This document shows positions 5,139-43,282 of a DNA stretch of 59,025 nt, piece after piece. The position numbers and the translations under genes were made by a program. Positions within the stretch are counted from its first letter, which is position 1; every line of letters starts with the position of its first letter. The stretch covers positions 1-59,025 of the forward strand of contig DATLDP010000033.1 of NCBI GenBank assembly GCA_035525825.1, given 5' to 3'. The notes below the pieces were generated by a model. That model did no database searches, was not told the DNA's origin, and saw only the letters and a list, made by a program, of their open reading frames with translations. This DNA comes from Candidatus Limnocylindria bacterium (GTDB taxonomy: Bacteria > Chloroflexota > Limnocylindria > Limnocylindrales > CSP1-4).

Positions 5139-6854
5139 ATGGCCACGCACGCCCTGAGCCCGGCTGCCGTCCCCGCCTACCGCGGCGGCATCTACGAGTG
5201 GCTGACCACGACCGATCACAAGAAGATCGGGATCATGTACGTGATCAACTCGTTCCTGTTCTTCCTGGTCGGCGGCATGTTCGCGCTGCTCGTCCGGACG
5301 GAGCTGGCGCAGCCCGGGATCCAGTTCTTCACCAACGAGCACGTCTACAACGAGTCGTTCTCGATCCATGCGACCGTGATGATCTTCCTGTTCATCATCC
5401 CGATGCTCGCGGGCCTCGGGAACTACGCGGTCCCGCTGATGATCGGCGCGCCGGACATGGCGTTCCCGCGGATCAATGCCCTGTCGTTCTGGATGTTGCC
5501 GCTCGGCGGGATCCTGCTGCTGATGGGCTTCCTGGTCCCAGGCGGCGCGGCCGCGGCCGGCTGGACGAGCTATCCCCCACTGTCCGAGCGAGGCGCGCTG
5601 TCGTCGCCAGGTGCGGGCCAGGACCTCTGGATCGTGGCACTGATCCTGATCGGCACGAGCTCGATTCTCGGCGGCATCAACTTCCTCGTGACGATCTTCA
5701 AGATGCGCGCGCCCGGGATGACCCTGTTCCGGATGCCGATCATGGTCTGGACCATTCTCGTGACCAGCGTGCTCGTCGTCATGGCGACGCCGGTCATCAC
5801 GAGCGCCCTGGTTATGCTCTTCATCGACCGGAACTACGGCGGCTCGTTCTTCAACCCGGAGACCGGCGGCACGGCCGTGCTCTACCAGAACGTGTTCTGG
5901 TTCTACTCGCATCCCGCCGTGTACGTCATGGTCCTGCCCGCGATGGGCGTGATCAGCGAGGTCCTGCCGGTCTTCAGCCGGAAGCCGCTGTTCGGCTACA
6001 AGGCGTTCATCTTCGCGACCGCCGGCATCGGCGCCCTCGGGTTCTCTGTGTGGGCCCACCACATGTTCACGACGGGCGCGGTGTTCCTGCCGTTCTTCGC
6101 GCTGATGACGTTCTTCATCGCCGTCCCGACCGGCGTGAAGATGTTCAACTGGGTCTTCACGATGTTCCGGGGCCAGCTGACATTCTCGACCCCGCTCATC
6201 TTCGCGATCGGCTTCCTGACGATGTTCCTGATCGGCGGCATCAACGGCGCCTTCAGCGCAGCCGTCCCGGTCGACTTCGCCCTCCATGACACCTACTGGG
6301 TCGTCGCCCACCTCCACTACGTCCTCTTCGGCGGCTCCGTGTTCGGCGTCTTCGCCGGGCTCTACTACTGGTTCCCGAAGATGACCGGCCGGATGCTCGA
6401 TGAAGGGCTCGGCAAGGTCCACTTCGCCCTGATGTTCATCGGCTTCAACCTGACGTTCTTCCCGATGCACATGCTCGGCATCAAGGGCATGCCCCGGCGG
6501 ATCGCGGACTACGCCTCCACCGCGGGCTGGAACGACTGGAACCTCCTGGCAACCGTCGGCGGCTTCCTGATCGGCATCTCGATGCTGCCGTTCATCTGGA
6601 ACGTCTTCGTCTCGCTGCGGAACGGCAAGGTCGCCGGCGACGATCCATGGGAGGGCAACACCCTCGAGTGGGCGACCTCCTCGCCGCCGCCGCCGTACAA
6701 CTTCGATCGCCTGCCGGAGATCCGGTCGGAGCGGCCGCTGTTCGATGCCCGCCACGGGCTCGTCGCCCATGACACCAACGCTCCGCGCGAGGTGGAGGAC
6801 GGCCAGAAGGCCATCGGGGCAGGCCCGGGCGAAGGTCGCGAGGGCCAGGCGTGA
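5139..6854 (+). CDS. ctaD: Heme-copper oxidase subunit I, A2 type
   Basis: TTTDHKKIG, HATVMIF, YSHPAVY, WAHHMF and VVAHLHY ligand motifs; PDMAFPRIN D-channel segment; TGVK K-channel lysine. Confidence 0.97.
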   Translation: MATHALSPAAVPAYRGGIYEWLTTTDHKKIGIMYVINSFLFFLVGGMFALLVRTELAQPGIQFFTNEHVYNESFSIHATVMIFLFIIPMLAGLGNYAVPLMIGAPDMAFPRINALSFWMLPLGGILLLMGFLVPGGAAAAGWTSYPPLSERGALSSPGAGQDLWIVALILIGTSSILGGINFLVTIFKMRAPGMTLFRMPIMVWTILVTSVLVVMATPVITSALVMLFIDRNYGGSFFNPETGGTAVLYQNVFWFYSHPAVYVMVLPAMGVISEVLPVFSRKPLFGYKAFIFATAGIGALGFSVWAHHMFTTGAVFLPFFALMTFFIAVPTGVKMFNWVFTMFRGQLTFSTPLIFAIGFLTMFLIGGINGAFSAAVPVDFALHDTYWVVAHLHYVLFGGSVFGVFAGLYYWFPKMTGRMLDEGLGKVHFALMFIGFNLTFFPMHMLGIKGMPRRIADYASTAGWNDWNLLATVGGFLIGISMLPFIWNVFVSLRNGKVAGDDPWEGNTLEWATSSPPPPYNFDRLPEIRSERPLFDARHGLVAHDTNAPREVEDGQKAIGAGPGEGREGQA

Positions 6855-7486
6855 CCGCTGAAGCCCCGCCCATGACCGGCGCCGTTTCCCACGGGGATCC
6901 GCACGCCGCCGAAAGCGGCCACGCGCAGCGAGGCATCTCCAACCCGATCCTCGGGATGGCGCTGTTCATCACCTCCGAGGTGATGTTCTTCTCGGGCCTG
7001 TTCGCCGCCTACTTCGCGACTCGCGCGGCGAACCAGCCGTGGCCGCCGGAGGCCTTCGGGGAGCTCCTGGAGCCCCTCTCTCTGATCCTGGTCGCGACGA
7101 TCATCCTGATCCTGAGCTCGTTCACCTGCCAGTTCGCCGTCTGGTCCATCCGGAAGGGCGACCGGGCCGGGTTCATCCGGAACATCTCGATCACCTTCGT
7201 GCTCGGGATCATCTTCCTGGTCATGCAGATGTACGACTACAGCATCCTCTTCGGCGAGGGGATGACGCTCGGCTCCGGGCCGTTCGGGACGACCTACTAC
7301 ACGCTCACCGGCTTCCACGGCGCCCACGTCTTCGGTGGCGTCCTGATGCTCGGGGTGGTGCTGTACCGCGGCCTCGCCGGCCAGTTCTCGGCGAAGCACC
7401 ATGACGCGGTCGAGGCGGTCAGCCTCTACTGGCACTTCGTCGACGTCGTCTGGATTCTCCTCTTCTCGATCCTGTACCTGGTCTGA
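6851..7486 (+). CDS. ctaE: Cytochrome c oxidase subunit III (short form)
   Basis: LFITSEVMFFSGLF, YYTLTGFHGAHV, SLYWHFVDVVW; GTGA overlap with ctaD. Confidence 0.95.
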   Translation: MTAEAPPMTGAVSHGDPHAAESGHAQRGISNPILGMALFITSEVMFFSGLFAAYFATRAANQPWPPEAFGELLEPLSLILVATIILILSSFTCQFAVWSIRKGDRAGFIRNISITFVLGIIFLVMQMYDYSILFGEGMTLGSGPFGTTYYTLTGFHGAHVFGGVLMLGVVLYRGLAGQFSAKHHDAVEAVSLYWHFVDVVWILLFSILYLV

Positions 7487-7499
7487 GGGGGAACGAGAC

Positions 7500-7685
7500 A
7501 TGCCCGGTCGACATCTCGCCGCCATCATCATCGCGATCAGCTGCGTGGTCCTCGGCGTCCTCTACGGCGCCCTCGCGCCCGTCTTCGGCTACCGCATCGA
7601 GTGGGCCGGCGTCACGATGCTGATCGCGCTCGGTGCCGCCCTCGGCCTCATGGTGTTCGTCCTCGACACCGGGCACCGCGAGTAG
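7500..7685 (+). CDS. Small two-TM membrane protein resembling the N-terminal half of actinobacterial oxidase subunit IV (CtaF)
   Basis: 61 aa with two hydrophobic helices; IEWAGVTMLIALG recalls the CtaF EWAGT motif; in-operon position. Confidence 0.6.
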   Translation: MPGRHLAAIIIAISCVVLGVLYGALAPVFGYRIEWAGVTMLIALGAALGLMVFVLDTGHRE

Positions 7686-7698
7686 CGGGCTCCTGCCG

Positions 7699-8787
7699 AT
7701 GGAGCCGACCGCCAGTTCCAGGACCCTCCTCGACACGCTGCTCGAGGCGGCCGCGGTCGTCATCACCCCGAACTGGAACGAGCTGCTGCTCCTGATCCCG
7801 ATCGGGCTGCTCCTCCTCTTCCTCGCCTGGTTCATGCTGACGCTTCGCAGGTTCGCGACCGTCGGCCCCCGACGCCGGGAGCCGGCGCGGATCCAGCCGC
7901 TGACGCCCGCCAACGTCCACATGCCGGGCGGCTCGCTCGCCCCGATCCTGGTCGCGGTGGGCGCGGCATCGCTGTTCGCCGGCCTGATCATCGGTGGCGT
8001 CGCGCTGCTGCTGGGTGTCATCGCGCTCGTGATCACGATGCTCGCCTGGTTCCGCGAGGCGATGCAGGACTACGACCACCTGGAGCCCGCGAACCGGCTG
8101 CCGGCCGTGGTCCACGAGGGCCCGCCGCCCGGCGTCCACATGCCCGGGCCATCGATCCGCCCGCTCCTGGGGGCGCTCGGCTCCGCGGCGCTGCTGGGCG
8201 GCCTCGTGATCGGTGGCTGGGTGCTGATCCTCGCGGTCATCTTCCTCGTCTACACCCTCATCGGCTGGCTGGTCGACGCGACCGCCGAGTACCGCAAGGT
8301 CGAGGAGGCGGACAAGACCGGCCATCTCGAGAACATCCCGGACCGGCGGCTGCCGATGCGCACGCTCCAGGTCTTCGCCGTCCTGTTCGCCCTGCTGACG
8401 ATGGCCCAGCTCGGGATCTTCCCGCCGACCGCGCCGGCCACGGCCGGTGGCCCCGGCGGCTCCCCTGCCCCATCCGGCGCCGGCGGCCCCGTGGCGCCTC
8501 CGGGCTCGCTCCAGCTGGTCGCGTCGGGCATCTCCTACGACCAGAAGTCCCTCACGGCGCCCGCGGACCAGCCGATCACGTTCTTCCTGGTGAACAAGGA
8601 TCCGGCCTCCACTCCGCACGACGTGGAGCTCCACAACGCGGACGGCACGCCGATCAAGCCGGTCCCCGAGACGCCCGGCGGAGAGTCGATGGCCTACCAG
8701 TACGACCCGCTGCCGGCCGGCGACTACACCTACATCTGCTCCATCCACCCAATCCCCGCGATGACGGGGACGCTCACGGTCCAGTAG
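7699..8787 (+). CDS. Multi-TM putative oxidase accessory subunit with duplicated HMPxxS hairpin modules and C-terminal type-1 cupredoxin
   Basis: VHMPGGSLAP (7918) and VHMPGPSIRP (8137) are each followed by two TM helices. C-terminal PHDV...ICSIHPIPAM. Confidence 0.8.
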   Translation: MEPTASSRTLLDTLLEAAAVVITPNWNELLLLIPIGLLLLFLAWFMLTLRRFATVGPRRREPARIQPLTPANVHMPGGSLAPILVAVGAASLFAGLIIGGVALLLGVIALVITMLAWFREAMQDYDHLEPANRLPAVVHEGPPPGVHMPGPSIRPLLGALGSAALLGGLVIGGWVLILAVIFLVYTLIGWLVDATAEYRKVEEADKTGHLENIPDRRLPMRTLQVFAVLFALLTMAQLGIFPPTAPATAGGPGGSPAPSGAGGPVAPPGSLQLVASGISYDQKSLTAPADQPITFFLVNKDPASTPHDVELHNADGTPIKPVPETPGGESMAYQYDPLPAGDYTYICSIHPIPAMTGTLTVQ

Positions 8788-36024: not shown

Positions 36025-36453
36025 GTGAACGACCAGCGCATCGTCCAGGGCGGACGGTCGAAGGCCTACCGGCCGATCCCGGAGGCCGAGCGGCGCGCGG
36101 CAATCGAGGATGGCCTCGCGGCGTACCACCGAGGCGACTTCTTCCTGGCCCACGAGCTGCTCGAGCCGGCGTGGATGGGGACCGCGGACCTGCCCGAGCG
36201 GGAGCTGCTGCAGGGCCTGATCAAGCTCGCGGCTGCGTTCGTCCATGACGCCCGCTCGAACCCGCTCGGCATCCGAAAGAATCTCGCGGGAGCCCGGGAC
36301 CGGCTGGCGGAAGGGCTCTATGCGGGCTCGCGCGTCGGGATCGATGTCGTGGCGCTGATCGCCGCCGTCGATGCACGCCTGGGTGGTGCGATCGAGGTTG
36401 GCGACCCGCCGATCGAGATCCCGCCACAGGATCCGACCGCGGGCGGAGGCTAG
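36025..36453 (+). CDS. DUF309 family protein
   Basis: FFLAHELLEPAW and LQGLIKLAAAFVH. Confidence 0.85.
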   Translation: MNDQRIVQGGRSKAYRPIPEAERRAAIEDGLAAYHRGDFFLAHELLEPAWMGTADLPERELLQGLIKLAAAFVHDARSNPLGIRKNLAGARDRLAEGLYAGSRVGIDVVALIAAVDARLGGAIEVGDPPIEIPPQDPTAGGG

Positions 36454-37979
36454 GCCTCCTTCGGGGCCCGAGCTTCGCGTTCGGCCCTGCGGTTCCGCCA
36501 CCAGCCGGCCATCTTCTCGCGGTTGTTGAAGACCCAGCCGACCGCAACCAGGATCACGAAGTTGCCCGTGCCCACGCCCGCCGCGGCGAGGTAGCCGAGC
36601 TGCTGCCCGATCTCTCCGCCGATCTGGAGGCCCGGAACCACCAGGCCCACCAGCCCGAGCTGGAAGAACGGCGCCTGCGGGGCGAGGTTCGCGCGGTAGC
36701 CGCCGGTGGCGGGGGCGCCGTCCGCCTCGCCGCCGAGGACGTAAACGTTGACGCCGCTCACGACCGTGGCGCTGTCCACCACGCCCGCCGGCAGGTCGGT
36801 CTGATCCAGGTGACGCCAGCCATCGGCCAGGTCCCCGTTGGCATTCGGGAGGGCCCAGTACACCTCGCGCTTCGAGGCGATCCCGTCCGCGCCGCCCGCG
36901 ATGTAGAGCGCACCGTTGGCCACCCAGCCAGCGGCGCCACCGCGCGCACCGGGGAGGTTCGCGGCGTCATTAACGGCCCACTGGACGACCCCTTCGATGC
37001 CGCCGCTCGCCGCGGGGCTCGGGGCCGCTGCCGAAGCGCCCGGCGCCGCGCTGCCGGCAGCCGCCGCCGCGACGCCGTAGCTGGCGCGCTGGACGGTGGC
37101 GGTCGGTCCGTTGGCGTCGTTGCCGCCGAAGACCCACAGGTAGGTGCCCTCGAGGGCCATCGTCGCGTCGGCCACGGCGTGGAGCAATGGCGGCTGCTCC
37201 TTGAACTCGCCGAGGTTGCCGGAGGTGTCGATCGTGGACTTCCAGACCTTGGTGCTCGGCGCGCCGTTGGCGTCTCGCCCGCCCGCGATCACGATGCCGT
37301 CGGTCACGGCAACCGCGGAGGCGCCGGCCCGGGGCTCGGGAAGCTTGAGATCCGTCGCGTCCTCGCCGGTGCCGATCTTGGCCGGCTCCCAGGCCTTGAG
37401 CGCGCTGGTGTCGGGGTCCAGCCCGATCTTCCAGACTGTGTCCGTGGCGCCGCCGGGACCGGCCCCGCCGACCAGGTAGGCCGTTCCGGAGAGGATCGCG
37501 AGCGCGGCGTCGGCGCGGGCCTCCGGCAGGGCCGGACCCTCCGCCCAGGCGCCGAAGACGCCGTTCGCGACCTGGCTGACGTAGGTCGTCGCGACCGGCG
37601 CGTTGCCGTCGCTGCCGCCGATGTACAGGAGGTTCGTGCCGAGCTGGGCAGCCGCACCGTCGCTTCGCGCCGCGGGGAGCGCCACGTCGGCGGCCGTGCC
37701 CTGCCACGGGACCAGCGCGCCGGCGGGAACGGGGCACGGCATGTTCGTGCCGTTCTCCGGCGGGCAGAGGTTGACCGGCGACCAGCCGAGGATGCCGAGG
37801 TCGATCGTCCGTGAGACGACGAAGTAGTAGGCGCGATCCGGCACGTAGCCGAGGGCCATGATGATGACGAGGAGCCAGAACCCGGCCTTCGTCGTCGCCC
37901 AGCCCCAGCCCTCGGGATCGAACAGCCCGAACACGGGACGGCTCCGAACCGGTCGACCTGCGGGCAGCGCCTTGGCCAT
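36450..37979 (-). CDS. Membrane protein with six Kelch-like repeats between N- and C-terminal TM segments
   Basis: Repeats LYIGG, YLVGG, VIAGG, WVFGG, YIAGG and YVLGG, most preceded by LP.AR/LP.G; 2 nt downstream of the cytochrome c gene. Confidence 0.82.
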   Translation of the reverse strand: MAKALPAGRPVRSRPVFGLFDPEGWGWATTKAGFWLLVIIMALGYVPDRAYYFVVSRTIDLGILGWSPVNLCPPENGTNMPCPVPAGALVPWQGTAADVALPAARSDGAAAQLGTNLLYIGGSDGNAPVATTYVSQVANGVFGAWAEGPALPEARADAALAILSGTAYLVGGAGPGGATDTVWKIGLDPDTSALKAWEPAKIGTGEDATDLKLPEPRAGASAVAVTDGIVIAGGRDANGAPSTKVWKSTIDTSGNLGEFKEQPPLLHAVADATMALEGTYLWVFGGNDANGPTATVQRASYGVAAAAAGSAAPGASAAAPSPAASGGIEGVVQWAVNDAANLPGARGGAAGWVANGALYIAGGADGIASKREVYWALPNANGDLADGWRHLDQTDLPAGVVDSATVVSGVNVYVLGGEADGAPATGGYRANLAPQAPFFQLGLVGLVVPGLQIGGEIGQQLGYLAAAGVGTGNFVILVAVGWVFNNREKMAGWWRNRRAEREARAPKEA

Positions 37980-37981
37980 CG

Positions 37982-39046
37982 CTATTCGACCGTCAGGGTG
38001 CCGGTCATCGCCGGGATCGGGTGGACCCGGCAGATGAAGGTGTAGGTACCGGCCGCGAGCGGAGCGTAGGGATAGACGATCTGCTGGCCGCCGTCGATCG
38101 GCGCGGGATCCGAGATCGAGGTGCCGTCCGCGGCCTTGATCTGGACGTTGTGGGGCAGACCGGGCCCGTCCTGATTGTCGAGCGCGATGCCGAACGGCTT
38201 GTCAGCCGGGACGGTGAGCTCCTTCTTGTCGAACGCGACGCCGACCGCGACAAGGTCGACGACGGTGTCCTCCGGGCCGAGCGTCGCCACCGGTGCCGGT
38301 GTGCCGCCACCGCTCCCGGACCAGCACTCGGGCACGTCGGTGGCGTCGGCGGCGGGCTTGAACTCGTCATCGCGCCAACCCTTGAACGTCTCGACCTTGC
38401 CGTCTTCGCCGATGACCGGTTCGTTGAGCTCCGGGTCGCGCCGGGTGAACTCCTGGGTGCTCGGAGCACGGATGAAGGCGATCAGGTCCTCGATCTGGAT
38501 GTAGTTGAGCGGGCCGCCGTTCGTGTCGGCCCAGACCGGCATGAGGCTCTTGGGATTGCCGCAGACGTACCGCCCGCCGACCGTCAGGACGTTGTGGATG
38601 TACTGCTCGGACAGGTGCGAGAAGAGCTTCGCCTGGTCGTTGAGGACCGGGCCGATCCCGCCCTCGCCCTTGGCGCCGTGGCACCGCGCGCAGTTCGCCT
38701 CGTAGAGGTTGTAGCCGCGCTCGATGGACGAGACCTGCTGGGCGTTCTCCTGCGCCTCGAGCCGCGGCGTCGTCTCGATGATCGGGACCCCGAGCTCGTA
38801 GAAGTAGTAGATGATCACGAACAGGGCCACGATCGCGACGCCGAGGAACGCCACCCACCGGGCGTCACCCGTCTGGCGGACGATCTTGGCGGCGCGCTCC
38901 GACGTCAGCCCCGCGATCGCCCGGGTCTGGCGGGGCGCGGTGAAGCGCTCGGCGGACCGGGTGGGGGCGGTTTCGCTGGGCTCGCGGCGGGCGGGCAGGC
39001 TCCGCTCCGGCTGGCCCTCCCGCCGGTCCCTGGGCGAGTCGGTCAT
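37982..39046 (-). CDS. Membrane-anchored monoheme cytochrome c fused to a type-1 cupredoxin
   Basis: One TM; CARCH heme motif; SLMP likely axial Met; C-terminal PHNV...ICRVHPIPAM. Confidence 0.88.
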   Translation of the reverse strand: MTDSPRDRREGQPERSLPARREPSETAPTRSAERFTAPRQTRAIAGLTSERAAKIVRQTGDARWVAFLGVAIVALFVIIYYFYELGVPIIETTPRLEAQENAQQVSSIERGYNLYEANCARCHGAKGEGGIGPVLNDQAKLFSHLSEQYIHNVLTVGGRYVCGNPKSLMPVWADTNGGPLNYIQIEDLIAFIRAPSTQEFTRRDPELNEPVIGEDGKVETFKGWRDDEFKPAADATDVPECWSGSGGGTPAPVATLGPEDTVVDLVAVGVAFDKKELTVPADKPFGIALDNQDGPGLPHNVQIKAADGTSISDPAPIDGGQQIVYPYAPLAAGTYTFICRVHPIPAMTGTLTVE

Positions 39047-39717
39047 ATGCAGCCGGTTGGGGTCTTCGGCGGGATGATCCCCGGCTGGCCGACGGCGACC
39101 GGGAGCGGGCCAAGGGTGATCTTCGAGGTGTCCAGCGTCAGGATGCCCTCGGCGTCGACGGTGATTGCGAAGCGATCCATGCCGCGCGGCGCCGGGCCGT
39201 ACTGCGCGCCCTGGGCCTTGATCCCGAGGCGGTCATAGCGCGAGCCGTGGCACGGGCACTCGAACCAGTAGTTCTTGAGGCACGGGTTGGGCTTGCAGCC
39301 GAGGTGGGGGCAGCGCTGGTAGAGCGCGCGGACGTTGAGGGCGGTGCCGTCACCGGCTCGATCCTCGCCGGGCACGAACTCCTGGCGCGACGGGTCCACC
39401 AGCATGATGTAGGCCCGCGCGGCCTGGTAGTAGACCGGGAACCCGGTCGCGAACGGCAGCGACGTGTTCTGGGCCTTGATGTCGTCGATGGTCCCGATCT
39501 CGATCGTGCCGCCGAAGCCGCCGCGTGAGTTCGGCCACAGGAAGCCGATCGTGCCCGCCGCGACCTCCGTGAGCCAGAGGAGGGTCGCGCCGCCGATGGA
39601 GCGGCGCAGCAGCGTCCGCCGCGAGATCCCCTGGACGGGATCCTGGCGGAGCGAGCGAAGCGCCTGGGGCGTGAGGGCCTGGGGCTTCTCGGCGGGCTGG
39701 ACGTGGTAGTTGCTCAT
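39043..39717 (-). CDS. qcrA: Rieske 2Fe-2S subunit of a Rieske/cytochrome b complex
   Basis: SRRTLL twin-arginine-like segment plus TM; CPHLGC and CPCHGSRY boxes. Confidence 0.93.
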   Translation of the reverse strand: MSNYHVQPAEKPQALTPQALRSLRQDPVQGISRRTLLRRSIGGATLLWLTEVAAGTIGFLWPNSRGGFGGTIEIGTIDDIKAQNTSLPFATGFPVYYQAARAYIMLVDPSRQEFVPGEDRAGDGTALNVRALYQRCPHLGCKPNPCLKNYWFECPCHGSRYDRLGIKAQGAQYGPAPRGMDRFAITVDAEGILTLDTSKITLGPLPVAVGQPGIIPPKTPTGCI

Positions 39718-39725
39718 CGGTCAGT

Positions 39726-40352
39726 TCACAGTGCGAAGTGGAGGCCGTTGGTGAAGTTGTCGAAGAACGGCAGGTACGGCGTCACGAGGGAGTAGCCGGG
39801 CCCGCGGAAGAACACCCCGACGAAGGTGACCATCAGGCCGAGCGCGCACAGCAGCGTGAACAGCACGACCGCAGTCTTGCGATCCGAGGGCTTCTTCGCC
39901 TCGATGTTGGCCCGGTCGATGTACGGCAGCACGATCATGCCCAAGAGGATGTACAGGAACGGCACCAGCACGCCGGAGACGACCGGGTGGAAGTACGCGA
40001 GCAGCTCCTGGAGCCCGAGGAGGTACCACGGCGCCTTCGCGACCGGCGGTGTGACGTTGCCGTTCGCCAGGTCCTCGAGCGGGGCGTTGATGAAGAGGCC
40101 CATCAGGAGCAGGAAGATGCTCATGACCGTCGCGGCGAAGAACTCGATCGAGAGCAGGTGCGGCCAGGTCATGACCGTGTCGTCCGGTTCCTTCTGGACT
40201 CGAACGACCGCGTCCTGCTTGACCATCGCCAGCAGGCGGTAGGGCCGCGCGGACATCGGCACGCGCTGCTTGTCGATCTCCGTCCGACGGGTCGGATCGA
40301 CGGGCAGGACCTCGCGCGCGACGGGCTTCGTGTCGGTCTTCTGATCGCTCAT
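39726..40352 (-). CDS. Cytochrome b subunit IV-like protein (PetD / QcrC N-terminal type)
   Basis: TWPHLL, NAPLEDLAN, KAPWY (PEWY-equivalent), LPYID; three TM helices. Confidence 0.88.
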   Translation of the reverse strand: MSDQKTDTKPVAREVLPVDPTRRTEIDKQRVPMSARPYRLLAMVKQDAVVRVQKEPDDTVMTWPHLLSIEFFAATVMSIFLLLMGLFINAPLEDLANGNVTPPVAKAPWYLLGLQELLAYFHPVVSGVLVPFLYILLGMIVLPYIDRANIEAKKPSDRKTAVVLFTLLCALGLMVTFVGVFFRGPGYSLVTPYLPFFDNFTNGLHFAL

Positions 40353-40470: not shown

Positions 40471-41199
40471 TCATAGCGGACCGGAGATTCCGCCGTCTTT
40501 CCTGATGCGCCAGAAGTGGACGGCCAGGAAGATGGCGGCGACGAGCGGCAGGACCATGATGTGGAGCACGTAGAACCGGAGCAGCGTGTTCTGCCCGACC
40601 TCCAGTCCACCGAAGATCAGCGACTGGATGGGGGTGTTGATCACCGGCGTGTAGCTGGCCATGTTCAGGCCGATCGTGATGGCCCAGTAGCTGATCTGGT
40701 CCCACGGCAGCAGGTAGCCGGTGAAGCTCAGGGCGATCGTCATCAGCAGCAGGATCACGCCGACGACCCAGTTGAACTCCCGCGGCGGCTTGTAGGCCCC
40801 GTGGTAGAAGACCCGCATCATGTGCAGGAAGACGAAGAAGACCATCAGGTGGGCGCCCCACCGGTGGACGTTCCGGGTCAGCAGGCCGAACGCGACGCGT
40901 GACTGGATGTTCAGGATGTCCGTGTACGCGCTCCCGGTCGACGGGATGTAGAAGAACATGAGGTAGACGCCCGTCACGGTCAGGACGAGGAACAGGAAGA
41001 ACGACAGCCCGCCGAGGCAGAACGTGTACGCGAACTTGACCGCGTGCTGCCGGACCCGGACCGGGTGGAGGTGCAGGAAGACGTTGTTCATCACGGCGTA
41101 CGCGCGCGACCGCTCGTCCGTCGGGTAGGGGTTGCGGAAGAGCGACCGCCAAGCGGGGCTCCGGCGGATGGCCTGGTCCACCCGCTCGAGGAAGCTCAA
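40471..41199 (-). CDS. qcrB: Cytochrome b6-type subunit (4 TM) with heme ci cysteine
   Basis: FCLGG, HRWGAHLM...LHM, GYLLPWDQ, LH...VHF. TTG start with SD aggagg overlaps the upstream TGA. Confidence 0.93.
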   Translation of the reverse strand: MSFLERVDQAIRRSPAWRSLFRNPYPTDERSRAYAVMNNVFLHLHPVRVRQHAVKFAYTFCLGGLSFFLFLVLTVTGVYLMFFYIPSTGSAYTDILNIQSRVAFGLLTRNVHRWGAHLMVFFVFLHMMRVFYHGAYKPPREFNWVVGVILLLMTIALSFTGYLLPWDQISYWAITIGLNMASYTPVINTPIQSLIFGGLEVGQNTLLRFYVLHIMVLPLVAAIFLAVHFWRIRKDGGISGPL

Positions 41200-43034
41200 C
41201 GACCCATTCCTCCTGCGACGCCGGGCGTGCCGGCGAGCTGAGCGTCTCGGTACGACTCCTTGTAGAGCCGGCCATCGGTCGAGATCTCTTGCAGCTCGAA
41301 CCGCTCCATCGTAATGGCGTCGAACGGGCAACGCTTGACGCACAGCGCGCAGCGGATGCAGCGCTCCTCGTCGAGGATCATCGCGGCGCCGTCCTGCCAG
41401 CCGTAGGCCTCGTCCAGCTCGGTCAGGAGGCCCTCGGACTTGAGCTGGTTGATGTCGACCATGTGGATGACGCCCTCGGGGCAGACATCCGCGCACGCGC
41501 CGCAGAGGACGCAGCGGAACGGGTCGAACCAGATGTTGAAGTTGCACATGAGGCAGCGGGTTGACTCGGCGACGGCGGAGGTCGCGTCGTAGCCCTGCTC
41601 GACCTGGGTCGTGAAGTTGACGTCCGGGTCGGTGGACGGCATTCGCTCGGTCAGGGCCGTCATCGGGATGTGCTGGCGCGGCAGGACGTCGTAGAACTCG
41701 GGCATCTCGAACGCCCAGGTGCTGGTCATCTTGACGTTCGCCGCGACGGTCACGTCCGTGCGTCCGGCCAAGTAGCGGTCGATCGCGTACGCGGCCTTCT
41801 TGCCGTGGCCCGCTGCCTCGATGAGGGTCGTGGGGCCGGTCACGAAATCGCCGCAGGCGAAGACGCCCCGGACGTTCGTGGCGTAGGTCGCGGGATCCAC
41901 CTTCACGCGGCCGCGATTGACCTCGAAGTCCGCCTCGACCGGGAGGAACGTCAGGTCCGCGGCCTGCGAGACGGCCGGGATGACCGTGTCGGCCTTGATC
42001 ACGAACTCGGACCCGGGGATCGGCACCGGCGAGCGCCGGCCCGAGGCGTCCGGCTCGCCGAGCTTGTTCCGGATGAACTTGACGCCGGTCACGTGGCCGT
42101 TCTCGCCGAGCACCTCCACCGGGCTCGCGAGGAACTCCATGCGGACGCCCTCCCGCTCCGTCTCGCCGAGCTCCTCCTCGTCGACGACCAGCTCGGACCG
42201 CGTCCGGCGGTAGACGATCGCGACGTTCTCGGCGCCGTGCCGGAGCGAGGTTCGCGAGCAGTCCATCGCGGTGTAGCCACCGCCGATGACCACCACGTCC
42301 CTGCCGACCTCGATCGGCTCGCCGAGGTTGGCCTTCTTCATGAAGTCCACGCCGTACTGGACGCCCTCGAGGTCGCCACCCGGCACGTCGAGGGCCACGG
42401 CGTTCATCGCGCCGGCCGTGATCGCAACCGCGTCATGGTCGCTCTGGAGCTCGTCGAAGGTGATGTCGACGCCGATGTTGGTGTTGTAGTGGAAGGTCAC
42501 GCCGAGGCGCTCGACCAGCTTGATGTCCATCTCGATCGCCTCGCGCGGGAGGCGGAACGCCGGCACGCCGATGAGCATCGTCCCGCCGCCGTACGGCAGG
42601 CTGTCGTAGACGTCCACCCCATAGCCCTTCATCGCCAGCTCGCGGGCGACCGAGATGCCGGACGGACCTGCGCCGACGACCGCGACCTTCTCGGCCCGGG
42701 CCTCGATGTGGGGCATGACGTCAGGGATGCCCGAAGCCTCGTGCCACTCGACGAGGAAGCGCTTCATCGCCCGGATCGCAAGGGGCCGGTCGATGTCGCC
42801 GCGGCGGCAGGCGCGCTCGCACGGGGCGGAGCAGACATAGGAGCACATCGCGGCCACGGGGTTGGGCTCGCGGGAGAGGATGTAGCCCTCCTCGAAGCGG
42901 CCTTCCGCGGCAAGGTTCAGGTAGCCCCGGCAGTTCGTCCCGACCGGGCAGGCCTCCTGGCACTCGATGTTGCACTGGAGCCAGGAAGCATCGACCGGCT
43001 GGACGAGGAATTCCTGGCGGACGTCGAGGGTCAA
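41196..43034 (-). CDS. GltD/NfnB/DsrL-like NAD(P)H-dependent flavo-iron-sulfur oxidoreductase with C-terminal 2x[4Fe-4S] ferredoxin
   Basis: CQEACP, CSYVCSAPCERAC, GAGPSG, GGGYTAMD, YRRT, GDFVTGP, RCLMC and two CxxCxxCxxxCP motifs. Start uncertain (TTG 43034 after gaggt). Confidence 0.9.
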   Translation of the reverse strand: MTLDVRQEFLVQPVDASWLQCNIECQEACPVGTNCRGYLNLAAEGRFEEGYILSREPNPVAAMCSYVCSAPCERACRRGDIDRPLAIRAMKRFLVEWHEASGIPDVMPHIEARAEKVAVVGAGPSGISVARELAMKGYGVDVYDSLPYGGGTMLIGVPAFRLPREAIEMDIKLVERLGVTFHYNTNIGVDITFDELQSDHDAVAITAGAMNAVALDVPGGDLEGVQYGVDFMKKANLGEPIEVGRDVVVIGGGYTAMDCSRTSLRHGAENVAIVYRRTRSELVVDEEELGETEREGVRMEFLASPVEVLGENGHVTGVKFIRNKLGEPDASGRRSPVPIPGSEFVIKADTVIPAVSQAADLTFLPVEADFEVNRGRVKVDPATYATNVRGVFACGDFVTGPTTLIEAAGHGKKAAYAIDRYLAGRTDVTVAANVKMTSTWAFEMPEFYDVLPRQHIPMTALTERMPSTDPDVNFTTQVEQGYDATSAVAESTRCLMCNFNIWFDPFRCVLCGACADVCPEGVIHMVDINQLKSEGLLTELDEAYGWQDGAAMILDEERCIRCALCVKRCPFDAITMERFELQEISTDGRLYKESYRDAQLAGTPGVAGGMGR

Positions 43035-43282
43035 GGCGCGGCTGAACCTCAGTTCGTCGATGGCGGACGGTCGAACGATGGGGGCCGGCGATCCGGGAGC
43101 GGCCGGCAGGCGCAATCTACCATCCGCTCCCTTCCCACGCTCGCCGCACGCTCGGGACGTGCGTCTGCGAGCCCGGAATCGGGCCTGCGCGAAAGGTTGA
43201 CGCGGGCGTTCGCTCGCAGCTACGCTCCGGCGCAGCGACGACGCCCCCGGGTGGCGTTGGACTCCGAGGCATTGGATCCCGC

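Follow-up and report, generated by a model that had tools for sequence, protein, structure and literature searches.

Why should an operon for a Rieske/cytochrome b complex end in a gene for a Kelch protein? The question is raised by a stretch of 59,025 nucleotides of Candidatus Limnocylindria bacterium (GenBank assembly GCA_035525825.1, contig DATLDP010000033.1), which is referred to here as the window. It belongs to a metagenome-assembled genome (MAG) of Candidatus Limnocylindrales (2.3 Mb, 70% GC), and its gene at positions 36450-37979 encodes a Kelch beta-propeller carried between two transmembrane (TM) helices. Comparison of this gene and its neighbours with their relatives makes it fairly probable that the product is a stable accessory membrane subunit of the Limnocylindrales Rieske/cytochrome b6-type complex, its propeller acting as a scaffold or docking site; in a weaker form of this proposal, the protein would at least be an obligate membrane partner of the complex.

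Position of the Kelch gene in the operon

The operon, all of it on the minus strand, encodes in order a GltD-like flavoprotein, cytochrome b6, subunit IV, the Rieske protein, a cytochrome c-cupredoxin fusion and the Kelch protein (Table 1). Two nucleotides separate the stop codon of the cytochrome c-cupredoxin gene from the Kelch start codon (GAA TAG CG ATG GCC), a spacing that suggests translational coupling, and the Kelch gene is the last of the operon because a DUF309 gene converges on it and overlaps its 3' end. Among 80 GTDB species-representative loci, the cytochrome c-cupredoxin gene lies directly before the Kelch gene on the same strand in all 78 that are flanked (gaps of -4 to 54 nucleotides, mode 9 nucleotides, 2 nucleotides in eleven), and the full operon order is kept in all relatives' loci whose contig reaches far enough. 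Over ~95 adequately flanked loci in total, the Kelch gene always follows the cytochrome c-cupredoxin gene. P0250, the full-length representative that diverges most, has the gene in the same operon with a c subunit that has a copper site, the short contig of another (P0246) has the cytochrome c-cupredoxin gene just upstream of the Kelch gene, and no Kelch homologue was found away from the operon among the loci, genomes and representatives examined. The initial annotation had taken the gene for the last of a bc operon, starting 2 nucleotides past the cytochrome c stop, and had named synteny of homologues as the check; position and junction stand, the strand, which it did not give, is minus, and the homologues are not scattered from qcr clusters, being always found behind the cytochrome c-cupredoxin gene.

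The public gene call for the Kelch protein is 494 aa, versus 509 aa for the open reading frame (ORF). Residues 1-15 are conserved (A4, L5 and G8 in at least 90% of sequences, R14 in 79 of 79), and therefore the ATG at 37979 is favoured over the 494-aa call. The ORF is a genuine gene under selection and did not arise by chance: the search recovered 1597 homologues, and 38 of 41 relatives have an intact orthologue, at identities as low as ~40%.

Co-inheritance with cytochrome b

The 38 of 41 close relatives have one copy each, including members of a second family with genomes of 1.0-1.4 Mb (~43% identity), and three incomplete genus relatives without the Kelch gene also have no cytochrome c-cupredoxin orthologue. 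In an even sample of 401 Chloroflexota genomes, whole-protein matches are confined to the order of the window, with partial matches to generic Kelch repeats elsewhere. A profile search of 1.8 billion representatives at 50% identity returned ~5 full-length clusters, the other high-scoring representatives being giant multi-Kelch proteins or frameshifted fragments; six candidates for divergent membership of the family (P0251, P0291, P0294, P0313, P0265 and P0281) were rejected as frameshifted assemblies.

The Kelch-bearing genomes of the order in the 401-genome sample number 20, and an orthologous cytochrome b is encoded in 20/20. No genome of the sampled order has the Kelch gene without cytochrome b, one has cytochrome b without the Kelch gene (its contig ends inside the c-subunit gene), and 7 genomes of genera g6 and g7 (91-95% complete) have neither the Kelch gene nor any cytochrome b. 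Like the genes of supernumerary subunits, the Kelch gene is encoded and co-inherited with those of the core subunits.

Three observations concern the cytochrome b complement and the labelling of these genomes. No cytochrome b of any kind is encoded by G190, G208, G217, G226, G244, G275, G424 and G476 (g6 and g7, 91-95% complete), and these genera must respire, if at all, without a Rieske/cytochrome b complex. Some genomes of the family (G385 and G369, also G479 and G505) possess a second, stand-alone cytochrome b6-type gene (83-86% identical), which in the first two (L116:11510-12136 and L117:11976-12602) has no subunit IV, Rieske, c-subunit or Kelch gene beside it. Five operon-bearing MAGs (L024, L025, L034, L037 and L078) are titled Binatia, Patescibacteria, Eisenbacteria, Dormiibacterota or Saccharimonadales, and are probably mislabelled.

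Membrane anchors and their counterpart in the sister order

The charge bias of the Kelch protein (+5/-2 in the N-terminal tail, +18/-35 in the central loop, +8/-4 in the C-terminal tail) is consistent with a hairpin with both termini inside and an extracytoplasmic propeller. The sequence fits a topology of cytoplasmic N-terminus, TM1, ~400 residues on the outer (P) face, TM2 and basic cytoplasmic C-terminal tail. An AlphaFold2 (AF2) model was built on an alignment of 79 sequences, to which the invariant positions given here also refer; its mean predicted local distance difference test score (pLDDT) is 84.7 and its predicted template-modelling score 0.75. By Kyte-Doolittle hydropathy, TM1 spans residues 28-46 and TM2 residues 461-484 (AF2 helices 25-54 and 455-485). 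Invariant positions are W25, W27, A28, K31, W35, Y45 and P47-Y52 in TM1; N70, C72, N76, C82, P83, P85 and G87 in the cysteine loop; and P434, P437, F439, G442, G445 and P449 in the segment before TM2. The cysteine motif CPPENGTNMPCP occupies residues 72-83 (C-x9-C), the loop is probably stapled by a disulfide between C72 and C82, and the strand closing the propeller is probably contributed by W92. Conservation, measured as mean majority fraction, is 0.77-0.80 in TM1, the cysteine loop (0.78), the pre-TM2 segment and TM2, versus 0.62-0.64 in the propeller and 0.32 in its low-complexity loop. The anchors being most conserved, together with the polar residues of TM2 (GEIGQQ), supports the view that the membrane parts form a constrained interface.

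In the sister order (family f3), the operon is orthologous (cytochrome b 70-74% identical, the same flanking LmbE-like and aminotransferase genes) but has no Kelch gene, the Kelch slot being taken by a conserved protein of ~195 aa with four TM helices in its AF2 model (pLDDT 88). All 40 f3 genomes that give a significant match encode this 4-TM protein and no f1 or f2 genome does; it and the Kelch protein are mutually exclusive. BLASTP finds collinear matches between the two (residues 19-52 with 26-59 and 456-480 with 69-93, expectation value (E) 4e-4), and hhalign of the full-length profiles aligns TM1 only (E 2e-4 to 5e-4). With Kelch residues 63-433 cut out of the alignment, hhalign extends over both TM helices and the loop (probability 94.6, E 6.5e-8, 69 columns; probability 95.3, E 2.2e-8, 67 columns with larger alignments from the same two families). 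The observed scores of 52-55 compare with 13.9 +/- 2.6 (maximum 23.3) for full column shuffles, 16.4 +/- 3.7 (maximum 26.4) for block-local shuffles that keep hydrophobic blocks, and 15-17 for reversed sequences, and the negative control, a membrane ORF after cytochrome c in a third family (f4), shows no homology to the 4-TM protein (E 0.45). Motifs common to both proteins are [LF]FG..[ED].W..A..K, L.Y.P[DN]..YY at the outer end of TM1, and G[FY]L.A...G..NF in TM2.

The Kelch anchors are evidently homologous to TM1-loop-TM2 of the 4-TM protein (alignments A2 and A4), which occupies the same slot after the c subunit. Unlike the Kelch protein, the 4-TM protein has no propeller and no cysteine loop, possesses two more TM helices and accompanies a dihaem c subunit; with two TM helices and a 400-residue loop in place of four helices, the Kelch protein is not a member of the 4-TM family but a derived relative. 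The 4-TM protein has no Pfam family and no PDB sequence match at E<=10, and Foldseek of its AF2 model gives a best E of 0.28 with template-modelling scores <=0.28; no Pfam family was found for the Kelch anchor either, and in a profile search of the PDB the full-length Kelch profile (A3) matched generic Kelch domains only and the 4-TM profile (A2) matched nothing.

Most likely, the Kelch protein arose when a six-bladed propeller and a cysteine-stapled loop were inserted between TM1 and TM2 and TM3-4 were lost, the polarity of the event probably being insertion and not loss. In the reverse scenario, which appears rather unlikely, the propeller was present in the ancestor and disappeared from the sister order, where two TM helices were gained, making the Kelch form the more ancient. 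The data show homology and not direction, and parsimony cannot decide because the outgroup family f4 has neither form; but it is more common for a domain to be inserted into a loop, and the nearest relatives of the propeller are generic Kelch domains, widespread in the phylum. The reverse order of events would alter the history of the protein, not its function.

In one sister-order genome (G074, L103:9600-10760), the Rieske and c-subunit region translates in pieces across frames, which suggests frameshifts or assembly errors.

The c subunit and the cupredoxin

The orthologues of the c subunit have one CxxCH and a C-x2-H-x4-M copper site in 93 of 97 cases; the remaining 4 fall short, two of them being truncated and without even the haem motif. 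In the sister order (f3), in contrast, the c subunit is dihaem and without a copper site. Kelch and a cupredoxin-type c subunit always occur as a pair, and the sister lineages with a dihaem c have no Kelch protein. This co-occurrence goes back to one evolutionary event; it is the only evidence for the docking of the cupredoxin proposed by the initial annotation, and such docking is on balance neither supported nor excluded.

The pairing is also what an assembly or maturation factor would show, that is, a membrane-tethered chaperone of the outer face, co-translated with its client, that matures the cupredoxin (e.g. by handling Cu(I) via C72/C82) or folds and inserts the c subunit: the Kelch gene sits directly behind the cytochrome c-cupredoxin gene with a 2-nucleotide gap, is always paired with a cupredoxin-type c subunit and is missing from the dihaem-c sisters, and the only conserved cysteines of its product are in an invariant loop on the outer face. 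Copper chaperones, however, are marked by CxxxC plus His, H(M)x10Mx21HxM or MxCxxC, and the proline-flanked C-x9-C of the Kelch protein, with no conserved His or Met beside it, is not a known copper-chaperone motif; identity as a Sco, PCuAC or CopZ-type protein was rejected, there being no Pfam match to any of them. The anchors moreover derive from a protein that is present in lineages with no cupredoxin to mature, and the high conservation of the TM helices, including the intramembrane polar GEIGQQ, points to a permanent helix-helix interface. Such a factor is improbable by comparison with a stable subunit.

Two further features of c subunits and cupredoxins were noted. The dihaem c subunit of the sister order (L105:~6600-7700, L107) has an extra beta-rich domain of ~100 residues between the TM helix and the first haem, e.g. 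SVTVSAAGFEPAVIEIEINASINFTN, which looks cupredoxin- or Ig-like and is without copper ligands. A paralogue of the cupredoxin domain, 33-47% identical to the one at the C-terminus of the c subunit, was also seen (L013:3330-3665, L014:13071-13379, L015:5245-5589, L018:4727-5098; G008, G009 and G020). In the family with small genomes it lies 3-5 kb from the Kelch gene, and elsewhere in the genus inside ORFs of 367-405 aa. It may be a partner electron carrier.

The propeller

All six GG doublets of the propeller (121/122, 171/172, 233/234, 285/286, 362/363 and 416/417) are invariant, and four Pfam models score above cut-off: PF24681 (51.7 bits, cut-off 50), Kelch_1 (32.1, 20.1), Kelch_6 (30.6, 25.3) and Kelch_4 (24.8, 21.6). 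The AF2 propeller (residues ~91-430) has pLDDT >95 except in the loop of residues 301-330. In Foldseek its matches are six-bladed Kelch domains of solved structure (NS1-BP, KEAP1, KLHL2/3/12 and the designed SAKe6; E 1e-18 to 1e-15, template-modelling score ~0.8 when normalised to the target). By these profile scores, its repeated GG/W/LPxxR blades and its closed AF2 propeller, the domain belongs to the Kelch-repeat beta-propeller superfamily. The structural features proposed by the initial annotation are all recovered: an N-terminal TM segment, an invariant cysteine pair, six GG-containing blades, now backed by the doublets, Pfam, AF2 and Foldseek, and a C-terminal hydrophobic segment with a basic tail (8 K/R); its extracytoplasmic placement is consistent with the charge bias. 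Its functional reading, of a scaffold or assembly factor that may dock the cupredoxin arms or bridge to the oxidase, is borne out in part: the gene goes with those of the complex and its product probably faces outward.

The protein-binding Kelch domains named above have in common with the propeller their fold, GG doublet, W and LPxxR repeat motif. Identity to the solved domains is just 15-20%, however, and those are cytosolic eukaryotic adaptors with BTB/BACK partners; unlike KEAP1-type domains, the Limnocylindrales propeller is predicted to be extracytoplasmic, sits between two TM helices and has a low-complexity loop in blade 4. Invariant in the propeller are the G, W, P and R that are canonical for Kelch repeats, with no invariant His, Met or Cys, and this, together with its likeness to protein-binding Kelch domains, suggests a non-catalytic interaction module.

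Several enzyme identities were rejected. The N-acetylneuraminate mutarotase NanM/YjhT is scored far below cut-off (Pfam NANM 25.5 versus 45 bits, TIGR03547 22.1 versus 256, TIGR03548 33 versus 243). Galactose/glyoxal oxidase-type copper radical enzymes have a seven-bladed propeller, Tyr/His copper ligands and a Cys-Tyr cross-link; here there are six blades, no invariant His and no Cys in the propeller. A six-bladed pyrroloquinoline quinone dehydrogenase was ruled out by model scores below cut-off and by the lack of conserved His, Cys and Met. Relatives of 573-587 aa (P0017, P0074) were considered as natural Kelch-cytochrome c fusions, and their extra length proved to be an expanded low-complexity loop only. 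In these two (577-587 aa), the Ala/Pro/Ser/Thr-rich loop of blade 4 reaches ~100 residues and is like those linkers of surface proteins in monoderms that span the wall or are glycosylated.

An independent envelope- or ligand-binding protein (glycan-binding, mutarotase-like or a wall tether), placed in the operon for co-regulation only, could be read from the weak NanM/YjhT similarity (Pfam NANM and TIGR03548), the mutarotase or galactose oxidase labels that some sources give to relatives, and the variable loop, but it is quite improbable, with mutarotase scores far below the curated cut-offs, no catalytic-type residues conserved, a gene not found outside the operon and lost together with cytochrome b, and anchors evidently homologous to the same-slot protein of the sister-order operon.

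Proposed role and evidence against it

If the Kelch protein is an accessory subunit, it would associate physically with the complex, its TM hairpin holding it against the membrane core, and the propeller would offer a non-catalytic surface for interactions on the side that also bears the Rieske head and the haem c and cupredoxin exit domains. A more specific role, in which it would be fixed to the outer face of complex III as a platform and would position the cupredoxin exit domain or contact the terminal oxidase, is possible but tentative.

Several results weigh against these proposals. Operon membership and co-loss are also compatible with an assembly factor. The full-length comparison of Kelch and 4-TM profiles reaches only 31-48% probability, and the aligned columns on which the homology of the anchors depends number ~67 and are largely hydrophobic. 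In a third family (f4/f83), the operon occurs with a dihaem c, and homologues of the Kelch and 4-TM proteins were not detected; since this family runs the operon in this form, the subunit is dispensable for core chemistry. In a mirror-tree analysis of 45 operons (that of the window and 44 further loci), controlled for cytochrome b and GltD distances, no P-side partner of the propeller is singled out: its best partial correlation is 0.45, with the N-terminus and TM segment of cytochrome c, and that with the cupredoxin, probably saturated at a mean distance of 0.88, is the lowest (partial r 0.08). The propeller (mean distance 0.80) and the cupredoxin are the fastest parts, versus 0.13 for cytochrome b and the flavoprotein.

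Features of the locus

The coordinates are collected in Table 1. The cytochrome b6-type subunit scores 162 bits against Pfam Cytochrome_B and 295 against NCBIfam ExtP (cut-off 290). At the other end of the operon, the overlap of 4 nucleotides between the Kelch and DUF309 genes (36450-36453) leaves a terminator no room between the two. DUF2203, and usually DUF309 too, are conserved convergent neighbours of the operon across the order, and were not detected in sister-order loci. A scan of the locus for promoter and terminator consensus sequences gave no signal above shuffle expectation.

Table 1. Genes of the operon and its convergent neighbour, with the segments of the Kelch protein, in coordinates of the window
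Feature	Position	Strand	Evidence and remarks
GltD-like NAD(P)-binding flavoprotein with 4Fe-4S domains	41196..43115	minus	opens operon
Cytochrome b6-type subunit	40471..41180	minus	start codon not fixed, just downstream of flavoprotein stop at 41196
Subunit IV-like protein (C-terminal part of cytochrome b)	39726..40352	minus	
Rieske iron-sulfur subunit	39043..39717	minus	
Monohaem cytochrome c + type-1-copper cupredoxin fusion	37982..39046	minus	directly upstream of Kelch gene; Pfam Cytochrom_C and Cupredoxin_1
Junction	37980..37984	minus	TAG stop (37982-37984) of cytochrome c-cupredoxin gene and CG, then Kelch ATG
Kelch membrane protein gene	36450..37979	minus	509 aa + stop, ATG at 37979; final operon gene; Pfam Kelch, synteny, AF2
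Residues 1-24, predicted cytoplasmic N-terminal tail	37908..37979	minus	conserved MxxALxxG..R.. motif; residues 1-31 have 5 K/R vs 2 D/E
Residues 25-54, TM helix 1	37818..37907	minus	AF2 helix; ends in invariant interfacial motif Y-x-PDRAYY; evidently homologous to sister-order TM1
Residues 66-92, conserved outer-face loop WSPVN-C-PxEN-x4-PCPxPxG..PW	37704..37784	minus	sole two conserved cysteines, C72 and C82
Residues ~88-435, six-bladed Kelch beta-propeller, predicted outer (P) side	36675..37718	minus	six GG doublets, LPxxR / W motifs, AF2, Foldseek
Residues 301-330, Ala/Pro/Ser-rich low-complexity loop inside blade 4	36990..37079	minus	variable length; conservation 0.32; pLDDT ~70
Residues 434-454, conserved hydrophobic segment PxxPFFxxGLxGxxxPxLxI before TM2	36618..36680	minus	aligns to short TM1-TM2 loop (IPFL) of sister-order protein
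Residues 455-485, TM helix 2	36525..36617	minus	AF2 helix; polar motif GEIGQQLGYLxAAGxGTxNF; evidently homologous to sister-order TM2
Residues 486-509, basic amphipathic tail, predicted cytoplasmic	36453..36524	minus	residues 483-509 have 8 K/R vs 4 D/E
DUF309 gene	36025..36453	plus	convergent; 3' end overlaps Kelch 3' end by 4 nt (36450-36453); operon end

Significance and comparison with known complexes

The usual description of a bacterial bc-type complex is of three or four core subunits, joined at most by tiny single-helix extras. Here, an abundant uncultured order of soil and freshwater appears to have added a folded domain of 400 residues to the outer face of its only detected Rieske/cytochrome b complex, by a route that can be read in the sequence: a propeller would have entered a loop of a small subunit in step with the substitution of a cupredoxin for the second haem in the c subunit. 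The locus may thus show, in a concrete and datable case, how supernumerary subunits are added to respiratory complexes, and the six operon products are a defined target for structural biologists. Should the propeller indeed be a fixed outer-face platform, it would be the first subunit with a beta-propeller in any Rieske/cytochrome b complex, and a clear case of a supernumerary subunit made by insertion of a domain into a loop as the electron exit passed from a second haem c to blue copper. The consequences are limited in that the family is confined to one order, a sister family carries out the core chemistry without Kelch, and any role given to the propeller is a guess. No paper was found that links Kelch proteins to bacterial Rieske/cytochrome b complexes, and a genomic study of Limnocylindria (PMC13212565) mentions neither Kelch nor Rieske.

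In anammox bacteria (Kuenenia kuste4569-4574), the Rieske/cytochrome b complexes include an NAD(P) oxidoreductase as well as further redox subunits. They likewise combine a Rieske/cytochrome b core and a GltD-like flavoprotein in one operon with lineage-specific additions on the P side, but these additions are multihaem or HAO-like redox proteins, whereas the Kelch protein is without a cofactor motif. The actinobacterial supercomplex of complexes III and IV (CIII2CIV2), found in monoderms with a membrane-bound c subunit and no soluble carrier, has the P-side accessory proteins LpqE, PRSAF1 and SOD. Their folds are unrelated to that of the Kelch protein and no homology was detected in the PDB profile searches; they are a possible functional analogy for the shaping of the exit to the oxidase.

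Supernumerary membrane subunits accompany the core of b6f complexes as PetG, PetL, PetM and PetN. They are also known from bc1 complexes, e.g. subunit IV of Rhodobacter sphaeroides (PMC10041115). Like the Kelch protein, the supernumerary subunits of bc1 and b6f are lineage-specific, non-redox, anchored by TM helices beside three core subunits and dispensable for core chemistry; unlike it, they are small, mostly with a single TM helix, and are not known to have a large folded outer-face domain or a beta-propeller, and their association with the complex is proven, while that of the Kelch protein is deduced. As a putative supernumerary subunit of a bc-type complex, the Kelch protein stands out by its size, by its fold and by an origin that can be traced.

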